Below are positions 4,701 through 57,224 of a stretch of DNA of 64,000 bases, one piece after another. Under the pieces are notes generated by a model. It worked only from the letters and a program-made list of their open reading frames with translations. It searched no databases and was not told the DNA's origin. The DNA comes from an archaeon. Its GTDB lineage: Archaea; SpSt-1190; DYHY01. Numbering within the stretch: position 1 is the stretch's first letter; every line of letters begins with the position of its first letter. Both the position numbers and the translations under genes were made by a program. The stretch is from contig JAZDJS010000048.1 in NCBI GenBank assembly GCA_043803745.1, positions 4,385-68,384 of the forward strand, in the 5' to 3' direction.

Positions 4701-5476
4701 TCCTCGGTAAATGTCGCGGAGTTTCCGGCAGTGTCAGTTACAGTGAACTCGAACGGGACAATTCCGGCAGGGTCTTCTGGATACATCTGGATGAATCCGT
4801 CGATTTCCGGGTCAATCCGCAGGGCTCCGCCAACGCTTGCAAGGCGGCCTTCGATTGTGAATGTTCCTAGTGTGAACTCTTCAGATGAGCCGGCTGCCTT
4901 GACATAGACATATGTCCATGGGCGGGCAAAGGAGGAATTGCCTGAAAAGTCGGAATTGATTCCGACTTGCTCGAATGTCGGGGCGGTCATGTCGAAAGTG
5001 ACGCTTGAACCGTCGGTCGTGGTCGTGACGGGATAAGTTTGAACTAGCAGGGAGCTGACTAGGGGAAGCGCATATGGGTATATCGAGAAAGGAACAATCC
5101 CTTCGGCATCCGATGATTGCATCGCATATTGGGAAACGTATGAAAAGCCGATTGCGGTTCCTTGGTTGGCGATTTCCTGAACAATCGGAACGGAGTGTCC
5201 GGCGATTGTAACTTCAGTCGTCGTTTCGTTAAGGAGCTGATCGGATGAGAACCTCAAAGTGACATTGTCGCCGACTTGCGCGTAAAGGGGGTTCTGGTTG
5301 TCGGAACTTATTCCAACTGGGAAAATGAATGGACCTGGAACCGGGGTCGCCATTGCCGGGGCAATCATCAGCGCTAAAATCGCGAAAATTGCGCAAAGCG
5401 CGGAAAGAAAACCGCCGAACCCCTTCTTGCCTGAAAAACCCGCTTCGTTGTCATAGTTCTGTTTCTTGTTTGTCAT
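1715..5476 (-). CDS. giant secreted surface protein (signal/anchor N-terminus, beta-propeller-like and parallel beta-helix repeats, Thr-rich stalk, conserved aromatic C-terminal tail)
   Basis: 1253 aa. The N-terminus has a basic stretch then a hydrophobic helix (ALCAIFAILALMIAPAMA). Internal N-x-I/V-x-x-N repeats are typical of right-handed beta-helix. The C-terminus is TTTVPTTTTIAP...GFFTGLFGAFQNFWNWLTGLF. Confidence 0.8.
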   Translation of the reverse strand: MTNKKQNYDNEAGFSGKKGFGGFLSALCAIFAILALMIAPAMATPVPGPFIFPVGISSDNQNPLYAQVGDNVTLRFSSDQLLNETTTEVTIAGHSVPIVQEIANQGTAIGFSYVSQYAMQSSDAEGIVPFSIYPYALPLVSSLLVQTYPVTTTTDGSSVTFDMTAPTFEQVGINSDFSGNSSFARPWTYVYVKAAGSSEEFTLGTFTIEGRLASVGGALRIDPEIDGFIQMYPEDPAGIVPFEFTVTDTAGNSATFTEENTTDSSFVHYDNRPSSVYVSKEYCDPNTQVTPDVLEQGPCGNDGHTWGYDAFNAVQAGVDAMFPAGSVYVVDNETYDEAVIMSKPGTIYGTDGGAVCGTAEICSLESEGSENLMTKISSVKIDDPETAFYWISTPYVIVTPKATISEGTTLVDEHGTVELTEGTWRESVLIQKHLRLIGAGVDNSIISVLPGENGISIYSGNATIEGLSILQFKGLDIIEPFSISAEFEETSSEGSGIYSSESDNIVLRNVKISYFAKGLDLHDGTNFEIYGNEISSNGVRKDDRSGIDLYEMSEVKIHDNTIDSNNVGIYSADSTGVVVEKNKIIDNELLGAEAEGEVIKAWRNWWGTASFAEIIGNVSGKVDFSFWCLDETCTTFAKPIETTTENLDLLNEFGLFETFAAGQGHLVGYNYPINGWTAQNTAFAVAPDGTIYKGYEDNLYTLDPLTGAESFKVQLNDLNDSSIIRPYAFAFDGNGILYMAAHGHVPSPCNDYLATVDTTTGDVSQIAKISYGDEYWYGGMNAIAFAPDGTFYGVKGSSTPQNSGSRLYTINKETGELTFVAIIQELFGEVENAEIQTGREFFTQGLAFSPSGILYGSGDTEGSSSDSVALGAGIGAMDSSSDGSIYKIDPSNGNVTFLSYTNPDTGYPGGMCFELSFSPEGKLYCYNYGSSDGPALVRVAGTTVFTNLAIGSGDSYAYPEDGTEITRGDGLPVDIRDFTADIFSFSASGLPANYSSVGAFQWGIVGQGLYFSPSMQISIYVGPAHNGGTLSIFRSLSPSGGRTQDGILDPTTCIVADGYCTFRATKASYYAAAAYSPPAPPVRGSGGSGGAPAETCRPDFALSAPADVETSTDFAEILVTLSVNGTCADYGTDITSSAPEGWRVDIGSTGLLKSGEEQTLTATVLVPEGADGTVQFTARIGGIDYTASTRVKSTKGAGSQGQPGQEEQQPEITTTVPTTTTIAPQQPPVGQTGFFTGLFGAFQNFWNWLTGLF

Positions 5477-5714: not shown

Positions 5715-8700
5715 ATGGGGAAGTTTAGCAAGATTTTAGGACTAGTTGTAGTTTTGTCTGTTTTCGCAGCGTTTGCAGTCGGAGTCGGATTTTCGGTAAC
5801 GGAGCTGAAATATGACGACGGGACAATAGGTTATAGTGGGACTTGGCTTGATTCCGATGGCCAATACGTTGTCAAGTTCGCGCCCGCGCACAAGGGGGAA
5901 ATAACCTGGCTAGGGGCATATGTTTCAAAGGACGGCTCGGACGACGAATGGTGGGCTGGACTTTTGAATTCCGACTATTCAACACTTTCCCCATATGTAC
6001 TGAATTACATTTCGGGCTCAAGCGCCTGGAGATATGCAAGCTTCTCAACAGTCGTTTCCTCCCCATTCTATGCGGCAGTGAAACTCCAGGGATCTGATGA
6101 CGCCCGCCTAGGAAAGGACGGTTCTTCAACTTCAGGCTATAGCGAAGCCAACACAGGTTCCGGCTGGTCAGCGGTCTCAGGGAACCACATGATCCGCGCA
6201 TATATCGACTATTTCCCCGAAGCTTCAAGCATTTCCTTCTCGGAAAACCCGACTTCTGCAAGTTCAGTTACCGTTTATGCGACTTGCACCGAATACGATT
6301 CCGACGACGATGTTGACCACGCCCAAGTCCGGGTTGACGGCGGCTCCTGGGACTGGATGTCCGCTTCCGACGGGAGCTTTAATGAGAACTCCGAGAACGC
6401 ATACAAAACAATTTCGATTTCAGGTCTTTCTGATGGCGACCACACTGTCGAGGTCCGCTGCGAAGACGAGAACAGCAACTGGGGCGACCCGGTTTCGGCA
6501 ACCCTGACAAAGGGGACTTCAGACACGACCGCTCCGGTGACAACCGATGATGTTCCTTCCGGATGGAAGAACACGGATGTCACGGTGACTTTCACCTGCA
6601 CAGATTCGGGCTCTGGCTGCGACAAGGTCTATTACACAACTGACGGGAGCGAACCTGATTCCGGCTCCTCCTATGTCGATTCAGCCTCAAGCTGGCAGTT
6701 CACAATGTCCTCAGAAGGGCAATACACAATCAAATACAGGGGAGTTGACGTTGCAGGGAACTGGGAAACGACGAAGACTGCAGCAAACCTCCTTAGCATT
6801 GACAAGACCGCTCCGGGAATTTCCGGGGCTGCGACAGAAGGCCCTAACGGATTGAATGGCTGGTATGTCTCGGACGTCACGGTAAGATTCGACTGCACAG
6901 ACGACCTTTCCGGTCCGGTTGAATCCTTCTTTGACATTTTCATGACAACTGACGGAGCTGGCCAGTCGGCTTCCGGAACCTGCTACGACCTTGCGGGGAA
7001 TTCCGCAGGAACGACTGTCTCGAACATTGACATTGACAAGACAGTTCCAAGCATTTCCGGGACAGTCAGCCCCTCGCCAAACGGGGATGGCTGGAACAAG
7101 GAGGACGCTACAGTCCATTTCGACTGTTCCGACGCAACTTCCGGAATCTCCTCTTGCACATCAGACGTTCTCGTTACGACTGAAGGAGAAACTCTCGTTA
7201 CCGGGACTGCAATTGACAATGCGGGCAACTCCGCGACAGCCGACATAACGGTAAAACTTGACAAAACGGATCCGGTCACGGAAAGCTCATTTAACCCGGC
7301 AGCCCCAAACGGGCTTAACGGCTGGTATGTTACCGAACCGGAAATAACCCTGACTTTCACAGACGCAGACCCGTCCTCAGGGAAAAAATGGACGAAATAC
7401 AAGGTCAATGGCGGAGATGCTGAGACATATTCGGCTCCGTTCGCGCTTCCCGAAGGAATCCACGAACTGAAATTCCACTCAAAGGACAGGGCGGACAACA
7501 CTGAGGGCTGGAACACAATCTCGAACATAAAGGTCGACACGACTGCTCCCGAAGCGCCCGAATTCTCGGGAACTTCCCCATACTATGACGGAGACGGGGA
7601 CTTTTACGTTTCCTGGAGCTCTTCGAGCGATGCGACATCGGGAATAAGGGGCTATGCCCTATACCGGTCGCTTAACGAAGGGTCGTTCGTCCTCATGGGA
7701 GTTTTCCTCGACACAACCTACCACGAGCAAAGCCCCGGAATCGATTCAAGATACGGCTACAAGGTTTCCGCAATTGACAATGCGGGGAACGAAGGGGCTC
7801 AGAGCGAAGAGAAGGTTGTCGTAGTCGACAGGATGGACCCGACAGCGCCGCTTATGCACGACCTTCCGCCATATATCGGCGAAACAGAGGTTACTGCCTC
7901 CTGGGACCATGCGGCTGACACCGGCGTCTATCCTTCCGGAATATCGACATATGATGTCTATGTGAATAGCGCACTTGACGGCAGCACAACATATCCGGAC
8001 AACGACTATTACAAGGACTCGCTTGCGAACGAGCAGACCTACCTTTTCAAGACGAATGCCTGGGACAAATCAGACCCTGCAAACGAGGGTCCGATGTCAA
8101 ACGAGGTCGGGACAACTGTCGACCTGACTGACCCGGTCACAACCGCGATTTTCAACCCGGAGACTCCGAACGGGAACAACGGCTGGTATATCTCAAGACC
8201 GTCGATAACTCTTTCGGCAGTTGATTCGGGCTCGGGCGTCTACAAGACATATTATTGCTTCGACCAGATTGCTTCTGGAACCAGTTCCCTTGATGTTGAG
8301 ACTGAGGAGACTGAGGAGACTGGGGACAACGAGACTGTTGAAGGCGACCGCTGGCATCCGACAACAACAACGACTGTCGCACCAACACCATGCACGCCAT
8401 CCGCCGAATACACAGGACCCTTCCAGATAGACACGGAAGGGACCAACTATGTCAGGTTCTATTCGGTTGACAACGTCGGGAATGTGGAAACGGTCAATGA
8501 AGTCTCATTCAAGCAGGACCTTAACGAGCCGACGAACCAGTGGTTTTTCCTCAATGGAGGCAATTACTATTCGGACGACTCTGACGTTGGAGCGTGGTAT
8601 GATTCCGGGAAGGATACAAGCAAAGGCAGCGGACTTGACTATTGCGTAATTGACTGGGGAGACGATTCCCAGACAACTGTCTCGAAATCAAGCAACCACG

Positions 8701-10568
8701 TGCACCACACATATGCCGACGGCGAATATACCGCAAGCTATGTCTGCTATGACAATGCGGGGCACTCGAGCGAGCCTGAAACCGACGAGATTTTCGTTGA
8801 CACGGTAGACCCGGCAACATCAGCTGCGCTCAATCCGGCGGAGCCGGACGGGGACAACGGCTGGTATGTTTCTGAGGTTGAAGTCGCTCTGACTGCAACA
8901 GACCCGGAGCCAGCATCGGGAATATACCGGACCTATTACTGCGTTGACCAGATTCCAGATGGGAGCGGCGACGACGCAATTGAAGGAACTGAAGTTGACG
9001 GCGACTGGGGATGGCATCCTCCAAGGCCTTGCACTCCGAACACAAGATATACGCATCCGTTCGACGTCTCTGATGACGGGACGAACTATGTGCGGTTCTA
9101 TTCCGTTGACAAGGCTGGAAACGAGGAAGAAACCCAGACAATCTCTTTCAAGCAGGACGAGACAAACCCGGAAACCGACCACTCGGTTTCCCCAAGGAAC
9201 CCTGACGGGGACAACGAATGGTATGTCTCGGAAGTTGACGTGACTCTTGACGCTGACGATGACACATCCGGCGTCTACCAGACACTCTACTGCGTGAAGC
9301 AAAGCCTTGCCTGCGAAGAAGAGGAAGAAGGGGATGGCGAACCGGAACCAACTTGGTGGCATCCCCCTGCGCCGGAAGAGCCTGAATGCGAACCGGACAC
9401 TCTCTATGACGGGACTTTCACAGTGCTTCTAGAAGGGAAGACCTCAGTAACCTACATGTCAATTGACAATGCGGGAAACGAGGAGGAAATGCACACCTTC
9501 TCGTTCAAGCAGGACTGGACCGACCCGACAACGACAGCGACAACCGACCCGTCCGAACCGAACGGGAACAACAGCTGGTTCAACTCAACAGTTCAGTTCA
9601 ACCTTACCGCTGTTGACGGGCGTGCTGAAACGCCTTCCGAACCGGAAGGGGAAACAATCGAATCCGGCTGCTTCTGGTGGTGGTGGCAGCATCCGCCTGC
9701 GGATGGAGAAGTTCCATGCACCTCTGGAGTCCACAGAACGTACTATTGCATTGACTATGGCGCGGAAACTGGGGTTGTCGGCTGCTCAGCCGAATCCGAG
9801 GATTGCGGGGCATGCTACCCGAGGACAAGATACACGGAGCCTCTGAACCTGACCTATGAGGGACTGCAAACAATCCGGTTCTTCTCGGTTGACAAGGCCG
9901 GTAACCGCGAGGGAATCCAGGAACAGGGAATCTGGATTGACACGGTTGCCCCGGAAAGCACAATAACTGCTCCGGCGAACATGTCGAACTATTCGGCAAT
10001 CGGGACCCTTGTAATCAGGGGGAACAGCTCGGACGAGACAAGCGAAATCTTCGCAGTCGAAGTTGTTGTCAAGAACGCGGGAGGCTATGCGCTGATGAAC
10101 TGGACCGCTTCCGAAATTAACGCGACAGGGGACTGGAATTTCACCTGGACGCCTGGCGGATACGGGACCTACTACATAAGCTCGAGGGCAATCGATGCTG
10201 CGGGTAACTTTGAAACGGAGCCGGAAGAGATTGTTGTCTACTTCCCGGAGCCGCCTCTCAAGGTGCAAACCTATGGCGGGTTCTACGTAAGGACCTGTGG
10301 CAACGGGGTCTGCAACGCGAACATCGGCGAGAACGAACGGACCTGTCCGGAAGACTGCAAGGCTCCTGAAGAGGAAGAGCCTCTTGAGAACGCCGAAGAG
10401 CTAGTCAACCAAGTGACGACAACGACGGTCCAGCCGACGACAACGACGACGGTCCAACCCCAGCAAGGGACGCTTAACCCGAGACCGGGAATGCTCCCAA
10501 CAGGACGGTTCGTCCTTTTCGACCTGGCGGACCAGTTCTGGCAGTGGCTGTCTGGTTTGATGCAGTAA
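5715..10568 (+). CDS. giant secreted adhesin-like protein with at least 8 tandem NGWY-type Ig-like repeats, an FN3-like module, acidic stretches, a Cys motif, a Thr-rich stalk and a conserved aromatic C-terminal tail
   Basis: 1617 aa with an N-terminal signal peptide (MGKFSKILGLVVVLSVFAAFAVG). The unit P(N/D)G-x-NGWY-x-S-x-V-x-V-x-(F/L)-x-(C/A)-x-D-x-x-SG-(V/I) recurs at least 8 times, as in OmpL47-type / chitobiase-C Ig-like domains. It is followed by CGNGVCNANIGENERTCPEDC, a TTTTVQPTTTTT stalk and ...FVLFDLADQFWQWLSGLMQ. Confidence 0.85.
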   Translation: MGKFSKILGLVVVLSVFAAFAVGVGFSVTELKYDDGTIGYSGTWLDSDGQYVVKFAPAHKGEITWLGAYVSKDGSDDEWWAGLLNSDYSTLSPYVLNYISGSSAWRYASFSTVVSSPFYAAVKLQGSDDARLGKDGSSTSGYSEANTGSGWSAVSGNHMIRAYIDYFPEASSISFSENPTSASSVTVYATCTEYDSDDDVDHAQVRVDGGSWDWMSASDGSFNENSENAYKTISISGLSDGDHTVEVRCEDENSNWGDPVSATLTKGTSDTTAPVTTDDVPSGWKNTDVTVTFTCTDSGSGCDKVYYTTDGSEPDSGSSYVDSASSWQFTMSSEGQYTIKYRGVDVAGNWETTKTAANLLSIDKTAPGISGAATEGPNGLNGWYVSDVTVRFDCTDDLSGPVESFFDIFMTTDGAGQSASGTCYDLAGNSAGTTVSNIDIDKTVPSISGTVSPSPNGDGWNKEDATVHFDCSDATSGISSCTSDVLVTTEGETLVTGTAIDNAGNSATADITVKLDKTDPVTESSFNPAAPNGLNGWYVTEPEITLTFTDADPSSGKKWTKYKVNGGDAETYSAPFALPEGIHELKFHSKDRADNTEGWNTISNIKVDTTAPEAPEFSGTSPYYDGDGDFYVSWSSSSDATSGIRGYALYRSLNEGSFVLMGVFLDTTYHEQSPGIDSRYGYKVSAIDNAGNEGAQSEEKVVVVDRMDPTAPLMHDLPPYIGETEVTASWDHAADTGVYPSGISTYDVYVNSALDGSTTYPDNDYYKDSLANEQTYLFKTNAWDKSDPANEGPMSNEVGTTVDLTDPVTTAIFNPETPNGNNGWYISRPSITLSAVDSGSGVYKTYYCFDQIASGTSSLDVETEETEETGDNETVEGDRWHPTTTTTVAPTPCTPSAEYTGPFQIDTEGTNYVRFYSVDNVGNVETVNEVSFKQDLNEPTNQWFFLNGGNYYSDDSDVGAWYDSGKDTSKGSGLDYCVIDWGDDSQTTVSKSSNHVHHTYADGEYTASYVCYDNAGHSSEPETDEIFVDTVDPATSAALNPAEPDGDNGWYVSEVEVALTATDPEPASGIYRTYYCVDQIPDGSGDDAIEGTEVDGDWGWHPPRPCTPNTRYTHPFDVSDDGTNYVRFYSVDKAGNEEETQTISFKQDETNPETDHSVSPRNPDGDNEWYVSEVDVTLDADDDTSGVYQTLYCVKQSLACEEEEEGDGEPEPTWWHPPAPEEPECEPDTLYDGTFTVLLEGKTSVTYMSIDNAGNEEEMHTFSFKQDWTDPTTTATTDPSEPNGNNSWFNSTVQFNLTAVDGRAETPSEPEGETIESGCFWWWWQHPPADGEVPCTSGVHRTYYCIDYGAETGVVGCSAESEDCGACYPRTRYTEPLNLTYEGLQTIRFFSVDKAGNREGIQEQGIWIDTVAPESTITAPANMSNYSAIGTLVIRGNSSDETSEIFAVEVVVKNAGGYALMNWTASEINATGDWNFTWTPGGYGTYYISSRAIDAAGNFETEPEEIVVYFPEPPLKVQTYGGFYVRTCGNGVCNANIGENERTCPEDCKAPEEEEPLENAEELVNQVTTTTVQPTTTTTVQPQQGTLNPRPGMLPTGRFVLFDLADQFWQWLSGLMQ

Positions 10569-15696: not shown

Positions 15697-17868
15697 ATGG
15701 GCTCTTTGCGGAAACGTTCGGTCTTTCTCCTTTTGCTCCTGTGTCTCCTGCTTTCGCTCGCCAACTCTGCCGAAATCTCCTCCTGCGGAACCGAGATCTC
15801 CTCTTCCGGAAGCTATTCCCTCTCAAAGAACATCTCCGGCTCAAGCATAAACATCCAGAACGTGTACCTGGCTTGCCTGAAGGTTTCCTCATCCCACGTT
15901 TCAATTGACTGCGCGAATTTTTCAATAACGGAGAGCTCCCCGGGAAAAACTGTCGGAATTTTCGTCCAGGGGCTTGTGAGGAACGTCACAATTCGCAACT
16001 GCAAGAGCCTTTCCGGATTTGAAACCGGAATCTACCTTTCCGGGGCTCTTGACGGGGGGATTTCGGGCTCGAATATCACCGGGAACATCAACGGAATCAG
16101 GCTGATTTCCTCGGAAAACTTCAACCTTACCGAAAGCAATGTTTCGGGGAACGTCATCGGGCTCTACAGCTATTTCGGGGAACGGAATTTCGCGGTCGGG
16201 AACATCTTTTCCCGGAACCGCCTCGTCGGAATAAAGGTCGAGGGACCGACTGCCCAGCGGCTTCCCGGACAGGGGAACTTCTTCTTTTGGAACAACGTTT
16301 CCGGAAGCGAGCAGGGATTCGAAATAACTAGGGCGAACGGGAACCTGCTCATAGGCAATCAGATCTCAAACTCAAGCATGTACGGGATACGCATCGCATA
16401 CTCAAGGGACAACAACATCTCCCTGAACGCGATTTCGGGCTCGAAGAGGGTCGGCCTCTTCCTTGACACCTCCTCGGGCAACCTGTTCAGCTGCAACAAT
16501 TTCTCCGGAAACCTTGTTGACATTGACACCTACTATGCAAACGAGAACCTTGGAAACGCATCCTGCGACGGGGCCAATGTAACGATTGGAACGCCCCAAA
16601 ACCAGACCAGGACAACTGCGCAGCTAACGACGATCCCTGCTTGCGCCTGCACCCCTTGGGTTTCCCGGGGATGCAATACGGGAAGCTGCCAATACGGAAG
16701 CGAATTCTCGGAAAGGTCCTGCGCACCGGCGGGATGCGCATCGGAGAAAACGTGCATAATAAACGCATATTGCTATCGGCAGATTCCACTGGAAAACGCG
16801 CCCCAGACGAGCGTTCCCATCGAATCGTCCTGCCCTGCGAACTGCGACGATTCCAATCCTTGCACTGTCGATTCCTGCTCGGAAGAAACGGGCTTCAATT
16901 GCCGCCACGCAAGCCTACCTGAAGGGGCTTCCTGCGGAAAAGACCTTTTCTGCAAGGCAACTAGCGAATGCGCGCAAAAAAGCGAGCCACAGCAAAGCTG
17001 CCCTGCTTGTTCCGAACCGGGTGCTTGGTCCGGATGCTTGGATGGCGTGCATAGCCGGACAATACAGATATGCGGCCAGGAAACCGGATATTTCTGCGTT
17101 CCATACATTGAAAGGGGGGCTTGCCTGCTTCCGGCGCAGACAACCGTCCCTGCCGCAACAGCGCCCCCTTCCTCGTGCAGGGAGAACTCGGAATGCCCGG
17201 CAACGAATGTCTGCTCGGGAGGGCAGTGCGTTCCCGCAAAGCTGGTTCTTGTTTTTGTTCCGCTCAATTGGACTGGGAGCGCGCAGAGTTTCTCGGAAGA
17301 GGCCGATCGTCAGGCGAATTTCCTTCTGGCGAACCTGCCCCTTTCCGGCTGCCCGGAGAAGGTCAAGATTCTGAAGGGAACCGAACCCTGCGCTGCGCAG
17401 ATATCCTGCAAATATTGCGGCGAGGCGCTTTCAATCCGGAGCTGCGCAAAAAGGGTTTCGGCAAGCGTTGACATTGCGATAGGGCTCACGAACCTGGACT
17501 CCCTCTGCAAGACGGAAATCCGCGGATTCTCCTGCGGTGCGGGGGGCGTTTTCGTCAAATCGGGCGGTTCCGAGGTTCTTGCCCACGAGGTTGGGCACGA
17601 GTTCGGTCTCCGCGACGAATATTGCAATTACGGAACCCGCTGCGGGGAATTCGCAGCTCCAAATCCCCTCCGCGCGGAATACGGCTGCAATCCCTCGGAT
17701 GCGAACTGCTGCTGGTGCTCCGGAAGCTATTCAGTCTGCTGCTATGGGAACGTTAACGAGTTCGGCGGACGCTCGATCATGAGTTATGCCGGAGCCCCCG
17801 CCCCCAGGGCTTTCGACTATCCGGCGCTTGCGCACCTTAAAAGCCTGGAAAAACTGAGGTGTAACTGA
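15697..17868 (+). CDS. secreted parallel beta-helix (NosD/CASH-like) protein with a Cys-rich region and a C-terminal HExxH zinc-metallopeptidase-like motif
   Basis: 723 aa with a signal peptide (MGSLRKRSVFLLLLLCLLLSLANSA). It has about 10 repeats of the form G-I/N-x-x-x-x-S-x-N-x-I/F-S/T-G-N. The central third carries more than 20 Cys, and the C-terminus has LAHEVGHEFGLRDEYC (HExxHxxGxxDE). Confidence 0.7.
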   Translation: MGSLRKRSVFLLLLLCLLLSLANSAEISSCGTEISSSGSYSLSKNISGSSINIQNVYLACLKVSSSHVSIDCANFSITESSPGKTVGIFVQGLVRNVTIRNCKSLSGFETGIYLSGALDGGISGSNITGNINGIRLISSENFNLTESNVSGNVIGLYSYFGERNFAVGNIFSRNRLVGIKVEGPTAQRLPGQGNFFFWNNVSGSEQGFEITRANGNLLIGNQISNSSMYGIRIAYSRDNNISLNAISGSKRVGLFLDTSSGNLFSCNNFSGNLVDIDTYYANENLGNASCDGANVTIGTPQNQTRTTAQLTTIPACACTPWVSRGCNTGSCQYGSEFSERSCAPAGCASEKTCIINAYCYRQIPLENAPQTSVPIESSCPANCDDSNPCTVDSCSEETGFNCRHASLPEGASCGKDLFCKATSECAQKSEPQQSCPACSEPGAWSGCLDGVHSRTIQICGQETGYFCVPYIERGACLLPAQTTVPAATAPPSSCRENSECPATNVCSGGQCVPAKLVLVFVPLNWTGSAQSFSEEADRQANFLLANLPLSGCPEKVKILKGTEPCAAQISCKYCGEALSIRSCAKRVSASVDIAIGLTNLDSLCKTEIRGFSCGAGGVFVKSGGSEVLAHEVGHEFGLRDEYCNYGTRCGEFAAPNPLRAEYGCNPSDANCCWCSGSYSVCCYGNVNEFGGRSIMSYAGAPAPRAFDYPALAHLKSLEKLRCN

Positions 17869-37225: not shown

Positions 37226-39028
37226 GTGAACAGAAAAATGGCGAACGATTCATTCCAGCCCCCGAGGGGGACGCGCGACCTCCTCCCGAAGGAGCTTTCG
37301 GTGAGGAACAGGATTTGCGAAATACTTTCCGGGACTGCCGAAACGTACGGCTTTGGGCCGATAGACACCCCGGTTTTCGAGAATTTCGACTTCCTTGCGA
37401 AAAAGTCCGGGCCCGAGGTGAAGGAGCAGATATACTATTTCAAGGACAAGGCGGGGCGCGAGCTCGGGCTCAGGTTTGATTTCACCGTCCCCATTGCAAG
37501 GCTTGTCATGAACAACCCCCAGCTGCCGAAACCTCTCCGGCTTTACGTCCTTGACAAGGCATGGAGATATGAGGAAATCTCGGCAGGCAGGTTCAGGGAG
37601 TTCTCCCAGTTGGACGTCGAGATACTCGGCTCGAAAGAGCTTATTGTCGATGCCGAGACAATCGCCGTCGGCGTCGCCCTCCTGACCGTTTTCGGGATCC
37701 CGAAAATAAAGGTGAAGATAAACAACAGGGAAATCCTTGACGGCTTTGCCAAAAGCATCGGGATTTCCGAGGGCTCTGCTCGGGACGATTTCTTCAGGAC
37801 AATTGACAAAAGGGAGAAGCTTTCCGAATCGGCGTTCCGGGAGGCGCTCGGGAAGCTGGGGCTTTCCGAGGAAACCGCAGGGCAGGTTTCGGAATATTGC
37901 GGCCTTTCCGGAGAGGCCGGGGATGTGATCAAGCGGGCTGAAAAGCTGCTCAACCAGAATTCCTTGATTTCCGGCGGGATCGAGAAGCTGAAGAAACTTT
38001 TCAGCCTCCTCAAGAATTACGGGGTTGAGAAATACTGCGAGCTTGACCTCTCGATTGCAAGGGGGCTGGATTATTACACTGGCATCATCTTCGAGGTCAA
38101 GGCGGGGAACTACGGGCTTTCGATTATCGGCGGCGGCAGATATGACAAGCTCATCGGGCTTTACTCGGGAGAGGAAATGCCTGCGACCGGCTTTGCAATG
38201 GGCATTGACCGGCTTTACGAGCTTCTTGGGAAGGAAGGGCGGCTGCCGGCATCGGGCTCGGGAAGCAAGGCGCTCGTGGTTCCGATCGGGGAACCCGCGC
38301 TTCCAAAGGCAATCGAGCTTGTCCAGGGAATCAGGCTTGCCGGGGTCAACTCGGAAATAGACGTCATGGGGCGGAGCGTTGGGAAGAACCTCGAGTTCGC
38401 CGACAAGGCGAAGATGCCTTTTGCGGTAATCGTCGGGGAGAAGGAGCTTTCGGCGCGCAAGGCAACGGTGAAGGATCTCCGGACCGGGGAAAGCGAGGCT
38501 GTGGATTTCGCGCAAGTCCCTTTCTACATCGCCGGGAAACTGAGCAGGGATTTCGAGGTTCCGGGCAAGTCCGAAGAGAAAACTTCTGCAATCGCGGGTT
38601 CGGGGGATTTCAAGGCGCGCCTCCACACGGCAGACCACATCCTTACGGGCGTTCTTGGTCAGCTTGCAAAGGGCTTCGAGGAACGGGCGCTGGAATTTGC
38701 GGAAACCCACTGCAGGTGGGATTGCGTCTCGGATGACGACTTGAGGAAGCTGAAGGCGGAAATCGAGAAAAGCGTGAACGAGATTATTTCTCGGAATCTG
38801 CAGGTTTCGCAAAAGGAGATTCCGAGGGCCGAAGCTGAGGAAAAATTCGGTAAGCTCAGGGCCCCAAAGGAGCTTGAGGAAATAACCGTCTACGAAATAG
38901 CCGGCTTCAACGAGCTTCCTTGCGGAGGCCCCCACGTCCGAAGCACGGCGCAGGTCGGCAAGTTCAAAATCCTGAAAATTGAGAAGAAAGGGGCGAAAGC
39001 CTGGTCGATAAGGTATACTGTTGAATAA
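37226..39028 (+). CDS. hisS: histidyl-tRNA synthetase fused to a C-terminal AlaX-S/tRNA_SAD-like editing domain
   Basis: It has the N-terminal HisRS-specific RGTRD motif, motif 2 (WRYEEISAGRFREFSQLDVE), motif 3 (GGGRYDKL) and an anticodon-binding domain. The last 150 aa or so carry HTADHIL (HxxxH) and CGGPH (CxxxH), as in AlaRS/AlaX editing domains. Confidence 0.8.
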   Translation: MNRKMANDSFQPPRGTRDLLPKELSVRNRICEILSGTAETYGFGPIDTPVFENFDFLAKKSGPEVKEQIYYFKDKAGRELGLRFDFTVPIARLVMNNPQLPKPLRLYVLDKAWRYEEISAGRFREFSQLDVEILGSKELIVDAETIAVGVALLTVFGIPKIKVKINNREILDGFAKSIGISEGSARDDFFRTIDKREKLSESAFREALGKLGLSEETAGQVSEYCGLSGEAGDVIKRAEKLLNQNSLISGGIEKLKKLFSLLKNYGVEKYCELDLSIARGLDYYTGIIFEVKAGNYGLSIIGGGRYDKLIGLYSGEEMPATGFAMGIDRLYELLGKEGRLPASGSGSKALVVPIGEPALPKAIELVQGIRLAGVNSEIDVMGRSVGKNLEFADKAKMPFAVIVGEKELSARKATVKDLRTGESEAVDFAQVPFYIAGKLSRDFEVPGKSEEKTSAIAGSGDFKARLHTADHILTGVLGQLAKGFEERALEFAETHCRWDCVSDDDLRKLKAEIEKSVNEIISRNLQVSQKEIPRAEAEEKFGKLRAPKELEEITVYEIAGFNELPCGGPHVRSTAQVGKFKILKIEKKGAKAWSIRYTVE

Positions 39029-51877: not shown

Positions 51878-53923
51878 ATGTTGTGGTGTAGGGAAAAGAT
51901 GAAAGTGAAACATTTTGGCGCGCTTTTGATTGCCTGCCTTGCCTTGCTTCTTTCGGGCTGCACGATTGGACCCGACCCGGACGGGGGCGGGATTTCCTTT
52001 CTCCTGACTCTCCAGGACCCCGTTGCAACGCTTGGAAGCGGGGAAGTCTTCACTCTCAAGGGCCTTGGCGCGAACTCCTCGAATCTTTACGCAACAATAA
52101 AATCGGACGGAGCAACGAATTCGTATTCATTTTCATGCATGAACTCGTCCGAAACAGTTGGCCTTCTGAAGGTTTCGGTCAGGAACTGCACAAGGGTTTC
52201 CGAAACGAACGGGTATGCAGTCGTTTCCCTTTTCAAGCTTGAAAAAACTGAATCGGCTCCCGATGAAGCAACTCCGGCCACGATAGACCCGTTCACGACC
52301 ATACTGACGACGGCCCCGGGTCCGGTTCCTCCAACTCAACCCGAAGAATTTCCCGGCCAGGAAACCCCTGAAACTATAGACACCCTTCCGACATCTTCGA
52401 TAGCAATGACGACGGCCCCGGGTGCGGCCCCGGGTGCGGCTCCGCCGGCCCCGGAAACTGTCAGAAGCAACTGCAATTCCGACCCGGAATTCGAAAGGAT
52501 TTGCTCGAACGTTGGAATGTCAACCGAGGGTTTCTCGGAAAACCGGACGCTTCACTGCACGGAGGGCTATTCCTGCTGGTTCAGGAAACGGGAAGTTGTC
52601 CCGGGTGTGAATGAGACTGAAAGCGAGACGCGGGTCACTACGGTCACGATAGACACTTCTTCCTCAACGACAATAACGACGACGGCTCCCGGTGCGGTTC
52701 CCGCTGTTGTTATTCAGAATGCGCCAAGTTGCGTTTCCGATTATGAATACTACCGGGCTTGCTCGTACCGGAATTCCACCAACCGGAGCCTGATAAACCT
52801 GTCGGGGGAAATCGGTCTGCCGGCTGCATTCAACCTGTCTGCAATGGTCTTTCTAAGCAACGATTCAATCGGGTGCGAAGGCGATAACCGGGTTTGCTGG
52901 ACCTACAAGCTCGGCACGTTCAATTTGAGCATAGCGGCTAAGCGAGGAGGCCTGACAGGTGAATGCATTGAAAACATTTCTTTCAAGGTCTGGAACGAAA
53001 CCTGGTCTGAAGAAGGGTTCCTGCCGGAGTCGTACGTTATTGTCGGAAAAGCGCGGGTACATGAGCTCAAGCGCATATATTTCAGAAATCTTGCCCCGGG
53101 AACTTACAGCTATTCGATAAGGGCTCCCGGTTATCCCGAGGCCTATTCGAACATCACCAGCAAAGCTTCTCCCTACAACCGGGACCGTTCAATCGTCTGG
53201 ATTATGGAACCTCTTGAGCTGAAGACCGTTCCAGTCACCTTCCACTTCACAGCGAAACAATGGTATGAATTCGGCGCGCGTTACTGGGACCTTGACAACG
53301 GCGAGATTGTCCTTGTCAACGAAACAAGGGGGCTCCGCTATTCCGAGAAAACGAACTCAACGGGATATGTCGTGCTTGAACTGATTCCCGCGAAATACGA
53401 CCTCACTGCAACCTGGAGGAACGCAACAATGAACGGAAAAATTAACGATATCCCGTTGAGTTCGAACGGAACAAATCCCCGTAGTTTCCAGTTCGATCTC
53501 AGCACTGCGCTAGTCTGCGGGCCGGGACTGAATCCGGTGTTAGTAGAGGGCTGCTTCAGGGAAAACATGAGCCTGCAGGGATACCTCCCTTCGACTTTGA
53601 AATGCGCGGAGGGCTATTCCTGTTTCTTTCGGTATAAGACCTGTGAAGAGTATTCCGACGGAATGCAGGACTTTGTGTGCTCGGGGGAAAACCTGACCGG
53701 CCAAGGATACGCACTGAAGGACAAGTGGTCTACCTACAGGGATAAAGGGGTCTGCCCGGAAGGGCAATCCTGCTGGAGAATATATCATCCCTGCGAGACA
53801 TTCAACAACTCCAGAGCTGACTACCGCTGTTCCGCCGAGAACTTTACAAGCCAGGGATACCAGAACCTGAGCGCATTCCCCTGCCCGACCGGACAGATAT
53901 GCTGGAGAAAGTTTTCGAGGTGA
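51878..53923 (+). CDS. secreted Cys-repeat putative lipoprotein with Thr/Pro-rich linkers
   Basis: 681 aa. The signal peptide ends in a lipobox-like LLSGC. TTAPGxxP linkers occur three times. There are at least 5 copies of a roughly 40-aa module ending C-x-(E/T)-G-(Y/Q)-S-C-(W/F)-(F/R)-(R/K), and many N-x-S/T sequons. Confidence 0.7.
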   Translation: MLWCREKMKVKHFGALLIACLALLLSGCTIGPDPDGGGISFLLTLQDPVATLGSGEVFTLKGLGANSSNLYATIKSDGATNSYSFSCMNSSETVGLLKVSVRNCTRVSETNGYAVVSLFKLEKTESAPDEATPATIDPFTTILTTAPGPVPPTQPEEFPGQETPETIDTLPTSSIAMTTAPGAAPGAAPPAPETVRSNCNSDPEFERICSNVGMSTEGFSENRTLHCTEGYSCWFRKREVVPGVNETESETRVTTVTIDTSSSTTITTTAPGAVPAVVIQNAPSCVSDYEYYRACSYRNSTNRSLINLSGEIGLPAAFNLSAMVFLSNDSIGCEGDNRVCWTYKLGTFNLSIAAKRGGLTGECIENISFKVWNETWSEEGFLPESYVIVGKARVHELKRIYFRNLAPGTYSYSIRAPGYPEAYSNITSKASPYNRDRSIVWIMEPLELKTVPVTFHFTAKQWYEFGARYWDLDNGEIVLVNETRGLRYSEKTNSTGYVVLELIPAKYDLTATWRNATMNGKINDIPLSSNGTNPRSFQFDLSTALVCGPGLNPVLVEGCFRENMSLQGYLPSTLKCAEGYSCFFRYKTCEEYSDGMQDFVCSGENLTGQGYALKDKWSTYRDKGVCPEGQSCWRIYHPCETFNNSRADYRCSAENFTSQGYQNLSAFPCPTGQICWRKFSR

Positions 53924-54646
53924 GTTTTTTCTTCTTCTTCTTCTTGCCGGACGGCTTAAGTCCGCTTTCCCACACAGTCCCAGTGCCGGGCTAGTCAAAT
54001 CTGGTGTCGGCACGGGTCCGGCTTTTTCCGGACAATTTTCAGGAAAAATTGGCGGCCTATTCCCTTTGGGTTTCACATTCTCGAGGTCGGGTAATTCCAG
54101 AATATTATCGCCGACCTTGATCCGGATTTTTCCGGACAAATATCCGCCATGCGTTTGGCGGACGGCCTCAGGCCCGCTTTCCCACACATTCCAATTTTCA
54201 GGAAAGCGAGCTTTTCGGCCTGTGTCCCGTCACACTAACGCTCCCCGATCCTCCTAACGTGATTAACGATACACTCTGTCCTGGGGAGTATCCCTCGTTG
54301 CGGGAGGGATTCCCGACAGGCCGGCTTAAAAACAGTTTCCCCTCGGGGTTCCCTCGGGGTTCCCTCGGGGTTCCCCTGCCTCCTGGTTTTACCGGGCGTT
54401 ATCTCAGTTTTTCCTCTTGAACTACCGCGGGCTAAAAAAGCCCGCGGATTTCGATGCTGCAGCATTGATCAAGTAACTCTTGACTCGGTAATAGGCGGGC
54501 TAATTCGCCCGCAATCATAGTGTGAAATCTGGAGCGCGCGTCATCCTCAGATGATCCAGCATCGGCTGGATATTTCCGCCCTCAAAGGGCAGAGTTTTGC
54601 GCGCGAAAGAATAAAAGTTAAATAGTGACCTTATTTCCATGGCAGA
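53924..54646. repeat. repeat-rich 720-bp intergenic region
   Basis: CCGCTTTCCCACACA and TTTTCCGGACAA / TTTTCAGGAAA modules each occur twice. There is a 3x tandem CCCTCGGGGTT, plus palindromes CGCGGGCTAAAAAAGCCCGCGG and ATGCTGCAGCAT. Confidence 0.6.
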
Positions 54647-55012
54647 ATGGCAACATTACAGCAAGAACAGGTTCGCACAGGTCAAGGTGGGAACTCCGGA
54701 AGTTCCCAGGGTCCCCCCTCGGGGAACGGCACGGAAGCTCTTGAGATAAACGAATTCATGCTCAAGATGATTGAGGTCCTTAACAAAAGGTTCGGGGCGG
54801 TCAATCACCAGCTCAACGAGATTTCCGCAAAATCCGCGGGAAAGGTTGAGCTGGCAGAAAAGCTTGCTGAGCTTAGGGCGAAACACGACAGGGAAAAGGA
54901 GGATTTGCTCGCAAGGATTACGCTCCTTGACAACGAGCTTGTCGCGCTGAAAAACTCCCTCAAGCCCCCCGAGCCGAAAGTCAACAAGAACATCCTCAAG
55001 CACCTGGAGTGA
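54647..55012 (+). CDS. coiled-coil protein (hypothetical), first gene of a three-gene module
   Basis: 121 aa with a Gly/Ser/Gln-rich N-terminus then a continuous heptad-like helix. Confidence 0.5.
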   Translation: MATLQQEQVRTGQGGNSGSSQGPPSGNGTEALEINEFMLKMIEVLNKRFGAVNHQLNEISAKSAGKVELAEKLAELRAKHDREKEDLLARITLLDNELVALKNSLKPPEPKVNKNILKHLE

Positions 55013-55422
55013 CTCGCGTGTCCTTCTCGGAAGTTTCGGCAATCCTTGTCAAGCTTTCCGAGGTAGTATCCCGACAGAGCGAGGAAATAGAACTTATCCG
55101 CGCCGACCTCCACATCCTTGCCAACAGCAGCTCGACAAATGTCGCAAAGCTGAGGGAACGCATTGACCGGGCTGAGAAGGCGATTACTGAAGAGCATCCG
55201 AAGGTTGTTTCCGAACGGTTCGAGAGCATCGAGGGCAAACTTGAGGAAATGTTTCACAGGTTCAACCAGACCGGTTCGCGCCTCTCGGAAATCTCAAGAA
55301 GGCTTGAGGAACTGAAGGAAAGGGAATCTTCCGAGGAAAAGTACGGAGAAGCAACGAGGAAGCTTGCCGGAGTCGGGCGGCTCATCAATCCCTCGATACT
55401 TTCCTATCTTGAACGGCCCTGA
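55009..55422 (+). CDS. coiled-coil protein (hypothetical), translationally coupled to the upstream gene
   Basis: 137 aa with its start overlapping the upstream stop. It is helical and heptad-like (ELIRADLHILAN...LEELKERE). Confidence 0.5.
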   Translation: MTRVSFSEVSAILVKLSEVVSRQSEEIELIRADLHILANSSSTNVAKLRERIDRAEKAITEEHPKVVSERFESIEGKLEEMFHRFNQTGSRLSEISRRLEELKERESSEEKYGEATRKLAGVGRLINPSILSYLERP

Positions 55423-55466
55423 CAGTGAAAAAGTTATTTAAGTAACGTAGCGGGAGTAATAATGAA

Positions 55467-57224
55467 ATGAAAGGACCTGGACCATTGGATAGTCCTGTAA
55501 TATCAATTGACGATTTTCTCCGGAAGATGCAATGCGACCCTCGCCAGGACAAGGGCATTTACCTGCCGGGGGGAAAGCACCCGCACCCTGAGTTGGGAAA
55601 AGGTGGCGGAGGCGGATATTGGGGACGCTGGGCAATGTGGAACGACGCGCCCTGGCAGCCCCATTGCTTGGTTTTCGGGGCAACGCTTCCGGAGCCGATA
55701 TACTACAATATTGTCGATTTCATGTGCGGAACTACCGGCCTCTGGTGGGATTACACGAAAATCCGGGAAGGCATTGCAGCATCCCCGACAAGCAGGCTCC
55801 AGGGGGAAATCCTCGGGCGCCAGTCCTTCCAGAGGAAGGATGCGAAGGAAATGCTTGCAACGGTCCAGACAATGAAGACGGTCATACTCAACCTCGAAAG
55901 CGATCTTGAGAAAATCCGCGAGCAGCGGGAGGCATTCACCAACAAGAACCCCGAGCAAATCAAGGGGCTTTTCGTCGATAACTTCGGCGGGCCCTCAAGG
56001 AGCTGGTCCGCCCTCGCGCACCAGGTCCCGATAGTGAAGAGCGCGCTGACCTGGTTCTACAGGATGGAGGAAAAATCTCCCGACGCCCTGAAGATGAAGA
56101 AGAAGGACAAGGAATCGGACGCGGAATTCCAGGCGCGCTGGACGAAGGAATGCCAGTCCGACATGGAAAAACAGGCGGATATTTTCGTCAAGTCCGAGGA
56201 GCTCAATCCGGCCGTCGCGAACTATCTCAAGCGGAAAATCCAGGAATACTGGACCTGGCGGAACAGCTATCAGGCTTTCATCAGCAAGACCTACAATTCG
56301 GTAATCCACAACATCCGCCAGCAGAGGGTGAACCTGCAGCTTTACATGAAATGGGCCCAGCGGAACATCCAGGAAGCCGAGAACATGCTGATTCCGTTCA
56401 ACGAGGTTGACCAGATATACGGGATGTTCGCGGAGGAATTCCCGCAGTTCGCGCCCCTGATGTACACCGTGACGGACATGTTCTACGACCCGGAGGGAAA
56501 ATGGCCTATTGTCACGGACAGGATGAGGCCCTGGCTACCCTGCATCGCAATCCAGCTCTTGATGAGCTACAATCCCGACCTTCAGGGGAACAAATTCGTC
56601 AGGGGCTTCTCAGTGATGAGCTACGGCGTGATTAAGAAGAAGGACAAGGACGACCTTAAGAAAGAGCTTGCCAGGGAAAGCTCCAACTTCGTCGAGATAA
56701 TGCGGACCGCCGGGGGGTTCAAGGAAGACGACCTCAAAAGCCTCGGACTCACCGAAACTGCCGAGGAGAAGGATATCGGGGAATACGAGAAGACAAAAGG
56801 TGAACTCGACGAACTTTCGACCCTGTCGCCCGAGGATACGGCTCAAGGATATTCCGTCGAGGGGGCGAACAAGGAAAAAATGAAGGCGCTTACGAAGAAG
56901 CTCTCGGAACTCGGGCAGAAGATAGGCGTTGAGGAAGTCGCTGACAAGGGCAAGACCCCTGAGGAAGCCGGCAAGTCGATAATGAAGGAGATGGAATCCT
57001 GGTTCAAGCCGTTGAAAACGAATGATACGCAGCTCTACAGCCAGATGTGGAACTGGCGTGAGGCGTTCTTGGCGGGCATAAAGCCGATGCTGGGGTTTTT
57101 CGGGAACGAGACCGACAAGGTCTTCGACACGAGGAAAAGGCGCGCATCCTGGTTCGCATACAACACGTTCTTCAAGGTCTACCACGGGCTCAAGGCGAGC
57201 TACGGCTGGCTTGATTACGTTTAA
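55467..57224 (+). CDS. large Trp/Lys/Glu-rich protein of unknown function
   Basis: 585 aa. There is no P-loop, no TM segment and no recognisable catalytic motif. It has a Gly-rich stretch GKGGGGGYWGRW and many W/Y/F residues. Confidence 0.55.
   Translation: MKGPGPLDSPVISIDDFLRKMQCDPRQDKGIYLPGGKHPHPELGKGGGGGYWGRWAMWNDAPWQPHCLVFGATLPEPIYYNIVDFMCGTTGLWWDYTKIREGIAASPTSRLQGEILGRQSFQRKDAKEMLATVQTMKTVILNLESDLEKIREQREAFTNKNPEQIKGLFVDNFGGPSRSWSALAHQVPIVKSALTWFYRMEEKSPDALKMKKKDKESDAEFQARWTKECQSDMEKQADIFVKSEELNPAVANYLKRKIQEYWTWRNSYQAFISKTYNSVIHNIRQQRVNLQLYMKWAQRNIQEAENMLIPFNEVDQIYGMFAEEFPQFAPLMYTVTDMFYDPEGKWPIVTDRMRPWLPCIAIQLLMSYNPDLQGNKFVRGFSVMSYGVIKKKDKDDLKKELARESSNFVEIMRTAGGFKEDDLKSLGLTETAEEKDIGEYEKTKGELDELSTLSPEDTAQGYSVEGANKEKMKALTKKLSELGQKIGVEEVADKGKTPEEAGKSIMKEMESWFKPLKTNDTQLYSQMWNWREAFLAGIKPMLGFFGNETDKVFDTRKRRASWFAYNTFFKVYHGLKASYGWLDYV

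Follow-up and report, generated by a model that had tools for sequence, protein, structure and literature searches.

Little is understood about the cell surfaces of archaea, above all in uncultured lineages. Among the surface proteins that have been described, the lipobox lipoproteins carry an N-terminal signal peptide ending in a lipobox, defined as [LVI][ASTVI][GAS]C, and are reported to be prevalent in Euryarchaeota and DPANN, their lipidation being mediated in Haloferax volcanii by AliA and AliB (PMC12462473). A biogenesis pathway for these proteins was described only in 2025, and the known representatives are mostly substrate-binding proteins. The S-layer glycoprotein of Halobacterium and Haloferax combines N-glycans with a Thr-rich, O-glycosylated stalk, and the S-layer glycoproteins have a C-terminal anchor and few Cys repeats. 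At the level of small repeated domains, the EGF-like, TNFR Cys-rich and Opy2 (PF09463) repeats of eukaryotic surface proteins are tandem units of about 40 aa with a fixed framework of six to eight Cys, N-glycan decoration and a C-x-x-G-x-x-C hairpin that has an aromatic residue behind it.

Here we describe a protein, encoded in a stretch of archaeal DNA of 64,000 nucleotides (the whole stretch being termed the window), which has features of all three. Like the lipobox lipoproteins, it has an N-terminal signal peptide ending in a lipobox, an archaeal host and a predicted site on the outer face of the membrane, while its mature part is unrelated to that of any of them. With archaeal S-layer and other cell-surface glycoproteins it shares a high sequon density, Thr/Pro-rich spacers, a probable beta-sandwich and a likely surface location, the difference being that it is rich in Cys repeats and has an N-terminal lipobox as its predicted anchor. 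Its repeat unit resembles the EGF-like, TNFR and Opy2 repeats in length, tandem arrangement, fixed Cys framework, predicted N-glycan decoration and the aromatic-flanked hairpin, but contains only four Cys and stays below the cutoffs of these families. Our preferred reading, to which we assign a probability of about 0.6, is that of a lineage-specific surface glycoprotein from an uncultured archaeon, anchored by an N-terminal lipid and displaying disulfide-stapled mini-domains. Surface lipo-glycoproteins of archaea that contain a Cys-rich repeat are of an already-known kind; the present one combines a textbook lipobox with extreme sequon density and a Cys-stapled repeat that has neither a sequence relative nor a fold relative.

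Domain architecture

An open reading frame of 681 aa, counted from residue M1, was confirmed at 51878-53923 (+), the strand to which the coordinates of all protein features below refer. The protein contains 26 Cys in total and, proceeding from the lipobox cysteine C28, is ordered as an N-terminal domain, a stalk, module M1, another stalk, module M2, a middle region and the tandem M3-M4-M5. The N-terminal domain (51962-52252, residues 29-125) has 2 Cys and 3 sequons and is without a family match. It is followed by a Pro/Thr/Glu-rich stalk (52253-52471, residues 126-198), which is free of sequons, comprises two TID...TTAPGxxP repeats and corresponds to the DNA repeat families D1/D3; a further TTAPGxxP linker lies in the Thr-rich stalk (52595-52729, residues 240-284) that separates modules M1 and M2. 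The three proline/threonine linkers of this type proposed in the first-pass annotation were thus recovered, at residues 144, 178 and 268, and are 74-83% identical to one another in DNA sequence.

The middle region (52916-53515, residues 347-546) contains 8 sequons and one unpaired Cys, C363. Used as query, it scored 30.3 bits (E=5.5e-7, in two stretches) against CarboxypepD_reg (PF13620), for which the Pfam cutoff is 32.3, while with the full-length protein as query the score was 21.1 bits. This carboxypeptidase regulatory-like domain, a transthyretin-like beta-sandwich, resembles the middle region only and not the Cys module, and a PDB sequence search with the middle region gave no meaningful match; from the profile similarity, the region is probably a beta-sandwich. 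The DNA of the same region also contains a perfect 17-nt inverted repeat (53352-53464), the arms of which, 53352-53368 and 53448-53464, match without a mismatch.

The four-cysteine module and its relation to known families

The repeat unit has the consensus C1-x(9-11)-C2-S-x-E-N-x-[ST]-x-Q-G-Y-x(6-14)-C3-x-E-G-x-S-C4-[WF]-x5, in which the four Cys are the only invariant positions of the alignment. Module M1 (52472-52594, residues 199-239) contains C199, C209, C227 and C233 and closes with CTEGYSCWFRK; M3 (53516-53641, residues 547-588) contains CAEGYSCFFRYK, M4 (53642-53791, residues 589-638) CPEGQSCWRIY and M5 (53792-53920, residues 639-681) CPTGQICWRKF. These four motifs, from which a closing Cys pair of the form C-x-(E/T)-G-(Y/Q)-S-C-(W/F) had been proposed, were located at C227, C576, C626 and C669 respectively, and the slightly relaxed pattern C-x-[ET]-G-[YQ]-[SI]-C-[WF] has four exact copies in the protein and none elsewhere when the window is translated in all six frames. 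The protein terminates six residues past the last C4, exactly at the module boundary.

Modules M1, M3, M4 and M5 are mutually significant, with pairwise Smith-Waterman z-scores of 5-17, and an HMM built from M3-M5 retrieves M1 at about 5e-7, with no other match among the ORFs of the window. The remaining candidate, M2 (52730-52915, residues 285-346; C285, C295, C333 and C340; CEGDNRVCWTYK), is diverged and carries a 20-residue insert; it retains the four Cys, the Trp after C4 and an M1-like segment between C1 and C2 (CVSDYEYYRACS versus CNSDPEFERICS), and its membership of the repeat is marginal (p about 0.02). Of the five or more copies of a four-Cys unit of about 40 aa envisaged at first reading, four are therefore solid, whereas the fifth, M2, is diverged and marginal. 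At the DNA level the module copies are 47-51% identical, and since the Cys framework has stayed intact at an identity of about 50%, along with the Gly and the aromatic residue that follows C4, the duplications are old and selection has preserved the framework.

As an alternative to an uncatalogued module, the unit could belong, in strongly diverged form, to a known family of small disulfide-rich domains, be it EGF-like, TNFR-like, Opy2-type or defensin-like. A Pfam search at E up to 10, run with the whole protein and with five segments, matched the Cys region to Opy2 alone, below threshold: 18.6 bits against a cutoff of 22.1, over 17 residues at the M3/M4 junction (profile positions 13-29 of 35), falling to 11.2 bits with the full-length protein as query. 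No EGF, TNFR, furin-like or Dicty_CTDC model was matched in Pfam, the NCBIfam search gave no match and PDB sequence searches with the full protein and with the module profile produced no meaningful one. The Cys complements also differ, EGF domains requiring six Cys paired 1-3, 2-4 and 5-6, and TNFR Cys-rich domains six within about 40 aa, as against four in the module, which has no TNFR_c6-type match.

AlphaFold2 modelled M5, the copy selected for this purpose, with a mean pLDDT of 84.6 and a pTM of 0.60 (83.0-84.6 over five models), a confidence that may be overstated, as the underlying alignment was made up of the protein's own five module copies, which are paralogous; the full-length protein modelled without an alignment reached a pLDDT of 31 and was unusable. 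When the M5 model was compared by Foldseek with the PDB and a viral structure library, nothing scored better than E=0.48, and EGF or TNFR domains were absent from all structural match lists. The best resemblances, both weak, were to the defensin-like peptides helianthamide (4x0n_B) and cryptdin-4 (1tv0_A), whose fold is a three-stranded antiparallel sheet with three disulfides. We consider membership of one of the known disulfide-rich families unlikely. The module, which had gone unrecognised at first reading, is uncatalogued in sequence and fold searches, and Pfam, the PDB and the structure searches gave no EGF-like or TNFR-like match.

Signal peptide and predicted lipid anchor

The N-terminus of the protein, MLWCREKMKVKHFGALLIACLALLLSGC, begins with an n-region rich in Lys, which leads into a hydrophobic core of 13 residues and then L-S-G-C, the signal peptide occupying 51878-51961 with KMKVKH as its charged n-region and FGALLIACLALLL as its core. 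The lipobox-like LLSGC signal noted at the outset agrees with L25-S26-G27-C28 (C28 at 51959-51961), in which every position conforms to the archaeal lipobox pattern. Anchoring to the membrane by an N-terminal lipid on C28 is accordingly what this arrangement predicts.

It could be argued instead that L-S-G-C is a chance look-alike cut by an ordinary signal peptidase, the protein being secreted or anchored by other means. Indeed, none of the other signal-peptide proteins encoded in the window has a clear lipobox, and no lipidation enzymes were seen in the 64 kb with the libraries used, which are without an AliA model. Yet the match to the lipobox is complete and lies at the expected distance after the 13-residue core and the Lys-rich n-region, and the C-terminal transmembrane helix or PGF-CTERM-like tail that might serve as an alternative anchor is absent, the protein simply ending with its last module. 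We therefore regard a fortuitous lipobox as quite unlikely and retain the lipid-anchored form.

Predicted disulfide connectivity

The M5 model contains two strands, 9-14 (with C2) and 36-41 (with C4); residues 19-21 form a helical turn, and there is a bridge at 24-25. Should the two strands run antiparallel to each other in full register, C2 (position 13) would face C4 (position 37), suggesting disulfides C2-C4 and C1-C3, and this pairing, derived from such a strand registry, is the most likely one.

Four invariant Cys in each module, no more and no fewer, would also be compatible with the binding of a metal such as Zn, particularly if the host were an anaerobe, of which the presence of an ADP-dependent sugar-kinase-like gene is a weak hint. 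Zinc ribbons typically have CxxC knuckles, to which the module spacings, C-x9-11-C and C-x5-6-C, bear no likeness. The model places C2 and C4 on two different strands of six residues each, as expected for a cross-strand disulfide, and they do not appear to cluster with C1 and C3. The export signal and the dense sequons, one of them directly after C2, suggest that the modules lie outside the cytoplasm, and structural disulfides are usual there. Metal binding thus appears to us very unlikely; the extracellular disulfides of the preferred reading would nevertheless be less certain if the host lives strictly anaerobically under reducing conditions.

Glycosylation signals

The protein contains 23 N-x-S/T sequons compared with 6.8±2.3 expected, a 3.4-fold enrichment over composition, and none of 2000 composition-preserving shuffles reached this number (0/2000), so that the dense decoration with sequons to which the first-pass annotation had drawn attention stands. 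Expressed as density, this amounts to 3.4%; the remaining secreted proteins encoded in the window have 0.7-1.9%, and cytoplasmic ones 0-0.5%. Four of the five aligned modules share a sequon position just behind C2 (ENMS, ENLT, ENFT and FNLS), a feature absent from the first-pass annotation. The oligosaccharyltransferase AglB/STT3 was not found among the approximately 27 window ORFs scanned, which are a subset of all ORFs. From the sequon pattern, we predict a heavily N-glycosylated surface protein. The suggestion that the module may be a new extracellular glycoprotein repeat is likewise supported, as far as computational tests extend.

Reading frame and start site

The annotated frame is the only one with a positive coding score, its codon-usage log-odds being 0.19 bits per codon as against -0.07 to -0.62 for the other five frames, and the score exceeds zero in each of five segments of the ORF. 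The notion of a spurious ORF or a decaying pseudogene without a functional product, for which one might invoke the failure to find orthologues anywhere and a score below the 0.25-0.47 bits per codon of the conserved genes of the window (themselves the training set of the codon-usage score), is in our view highly improbable given a 2-kb open frame in DNA of 54% GC, a positive score in this frame alone and in all five segments, a proper signal peptide at its beginning, internal repeats in which every Cys has been kept at a DNA identity of about 50%, and a sequon enrichment far above the expectation from composition. The gene is a real coding sequence.

Where translation begins is less precisely fixed. 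The NCBI record MFH0962216.1 ('MAG: hypothetical protein V1820_06050 [archaeon]') begins at V10 and is of 672 aa, and the true start would lie among residues M1, M8 and V10. Of these, M8 seems the most plausible, as a protein beginning at this residue (MKVKHF...) would have a signal peptide of the classical kind, 20 residues long, and about 21-27 nt upstream of M8 lies a TTAAAAT element. The lipobox cysteine is identical for all three starts.

Distribution and genomic neighbourhood

The search for relatives of the protein was extended to several large databases. When 1.84 billion representatives were scanned exhaustively with HMMER, the one real match was the protein itself; the match of M2 to a 52-aa tandem-repeat protein (P0002; E=2.7e-4) was the sum of nine weak stretches and is spurious. 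A word-indexed search of a 5.8-billion-protein database found nothing beyond the protein itself, and in a search of the same database with the module profile neither of two word-sharing candidates scored. Look-ups with the exact sequences of the protein and of its neighbour matched no recorded contig. In nucleotide sequences, a whole-protein back-translated pattern scan combined with tblastn detected no relative in 185,579 GTDB species genomes, the JGI metagenomes and IMG/VR. A two-motif DNA pattern (ENxxxQGY, a gap, then CxxGxxCW), which finds M4 and M5 in the window and has a chance expectation of zero, gave 2 genome and 4 metagenome matches, which were dismissed as chance, the best module-HMM E-value being 0.26 and the Cys framework lacking. 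A single diverged module is worth about 24 bits, which is below significance in databases of such size, and isolated distant copies may therefore occur elsewhere. As far as these searches extend, the protein is a lineage-specific singleton.

That the host is archaeal is indicated by GatD/GatE in the window and by the NCBI label of the MAG ('archaeon'), to which may be added an FtsZ/SepF-type context and, in the syntenic relatives, ribosomal S17e. For the adjacent NDP-sugar synthase, the closest sequences are 86, 70, 66, 58 and 54% identical to it, after which the next named one, from a Nanoarchaeia MAG, is at 29%, and this drop beyond five relatives suggests that the lineage is sparsely sampled. 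In two related loci, L002 (GCA_020723935.1) and L003, the order is an ADP-PFK-like gene, the NDP-sugar synthase, up158, a variable slot and dn121, the longer contig of L002 running on through dn137, dn585, HxlR and SufCBDS; a third, L004, shows only the side with the ADP-PFK-like gene, the synthase and up158 before the contig ends. The syntenic flanking proteins are 39-65% identical across L002, L003 and L004.

No relative of the Cys-repeat protein was found in the slot between up158 and dn121 in the related loci. Its place is taken in L002 by a 148-aa ORF and in L004 by a gene that runs convergently, is at least 217 aa long and has a cytoplasmic-looking product. The L002 and L004 ORFs have no relation either to one another or to any part of the window. 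As judged from gene order, the Cys-repeat gene is a lineage-specific occupant of a variable slot, the content of which differs in each related genome examined. Because close relatives are without the gene, its product is no core S-layer protein. That the gene might be functionally tied to the neighbouring NDP-sugar synthase was also considered and rejected, the adjacency being kept in relatives that do not have the Cys-repeat gene; the closeness of the two genes is incidental.

Proposed role

In the model that we favour, the precursor would be exported via Sec by its N-terminal signal peptide, C28 would be lipid-modified by AliA/AliB-type machinery and the signal peptide removed, leaving the mature protein to hang by its N-terminus from the outer face of the membrane. 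The Pro/Thr-rich TTAPG stalks would act as extended spacers, probably glycosylated, between folded parts comprising the N-terminal domain, the CarboxypepD_reg-like beta-sandwich and four to five mini-domains of about 42 aa, each of them presumably stapled by one C1-C3 and one C2-C4 disulfide, the most likely pairing, and most of them bearing an N-glycan at the conserved site just after C2. The tandem M3-M4-M5 would form the membrane-distal, C-terminal tip and could contact cells, surfaces or ligands.

As such a tip would be a natural contact site, adhesion or a protective glycan coat are the likeliest functions; a role in adhesion or as a protective surface coat is thus probable, as guessed from the architecture, and the variation of the slot among related genomes fits a surface protein of fast turnover. 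One may go further and picture the Cys4 unit of about 42 aa as a hitherto unseen, disulfide-stapled and glycan-bearing mini-fold, invented or radically remodelled in one deep-branching and sparsely sampled archaeal lineage, which tips a lipid-anchored adhesin; the gene would occupy a hypervariable slot for surface proteins, and its expression might be switchable by the 17-nt inverted repeat. We hold this extended version to be improbable; if true, the mini-fold would represent de novo or very fast evolution of archaeal extracellular recognition modules.

If the product is real, its mini-domain, which is compact and was modelled with confidence, would lend itself to expression and structure determination, and the protein would be a candidate marker for surface diversification in such archaea. 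In the absence of orthologues or a functional handle the protein opens no long-standing question, and its present value is that of a catalogued orphan module and of a substrate on which lipidation, glycosylation and disulfide formation in archaea could be tested.

Other cysteine-rich proteins in the window

Other signal-peptide proteins of the window are likewise rich in Cys, which speaks for the use of Cys outside the cell in this organism. For the Cys-rich protein encoded at 15697-17865, which has a Dicty_CTDC match, a repeat common with the module described here was rejected (hhalign probability 0.2%). This secreted protein carries 49 Cys in 723 aa.

Inverted repeat and non-coding elements around the variable slot

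The gene at 51878-53923 (+), which encodes the predicted lipobox surface glycoprotein with four-cysteine repeats, carries within it a perfect inverted repeat with 17-nt arms (53352-53368 and 53448-53464) separated by a spacer of 79 nt. Across the 64-kb window, no other inverted repeat is perfect over 14 nt or more with a loop no longer than 200 nt, and the corresponding RNA folds at -37.7 kcal/mol (z = -4.2). Since inversion of the segment in silico creates two stop codons, the element, were it invertible, would constitute an on/off switch for the gene; no recombinase was found nearby.

Directly 3' of this gene, the intergenic sequence contains a 125-nt non-coding block (~54186-54312), which recurs in two related archaeal loci, L002 (8161-8284) and L003 (1023-1146), and which is 75% identical between the window and one relative, although the flanking proteins there are only ~50% identical. 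Neither an Rfam family nor a tRNA was found for the block, its substitutions lack a codon-like pattern, and thermodynamic folding gave no signal on either strand (z ~0). The block may be a small RNA or a regulatory element specific to this lineage. The same 720-bp intergenic region (53924-54646) also holds several direct repeats: at 54340-54375, 11-nt units (CCCTCGGGGTT) follow one another three times in tandem, and repeats of 24-26 nt form pairs at 53955/54167 and 54017/54121.

Between the variable slot, which this gene occupies in the window, and the HxlR and SufCBDS genes lie three conserved, functionally uncharacterised genes (54647-57224 (+); L002 4986-7524). Two of them encode small coiled-coil proteins (121 and 137 aa) and the third a 585-aa protein, for which there was no Pfam or NCBIfam match. 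These proteins are 39-57% identical to their L002 counterparts.

Other proteins encoded in the window

The window also encodes secreted proteins of 1253 aa (1715-5476 (-)) and 1617 aa (5715-10568 (+)). One of these two very large proteins has beta-helix/NosD domains and the other Ig-like/CHB_HEX_C domains, and they indicate a rich surface-protein complement in a small genomic sample. In another Cys-rich secreted protein (15697-17868 (+)), which has 49 Cys and 14 sequons in its 723 aa, a Dicty_CTDC-type Cys repeat and a reprolysin-like metallopeptidase domain occur alongside NosD/right-handed beta-helix repeats, an unusual mixture in an archaeon; kinship with the ~42-aa four-cysteine module was considered and rejected, the two being unrelated.

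The histidyl-tRNA synthetase at 37226-39028 (+) is 600 aa long and bears a tRNA_SAD (Thr/Ala-tRNA synthetase second additional) domain at its C-terminus; that of a relative (L001 8623-9993) has 456 aa, and tRNA_SAD is not among its listed Pfam families.
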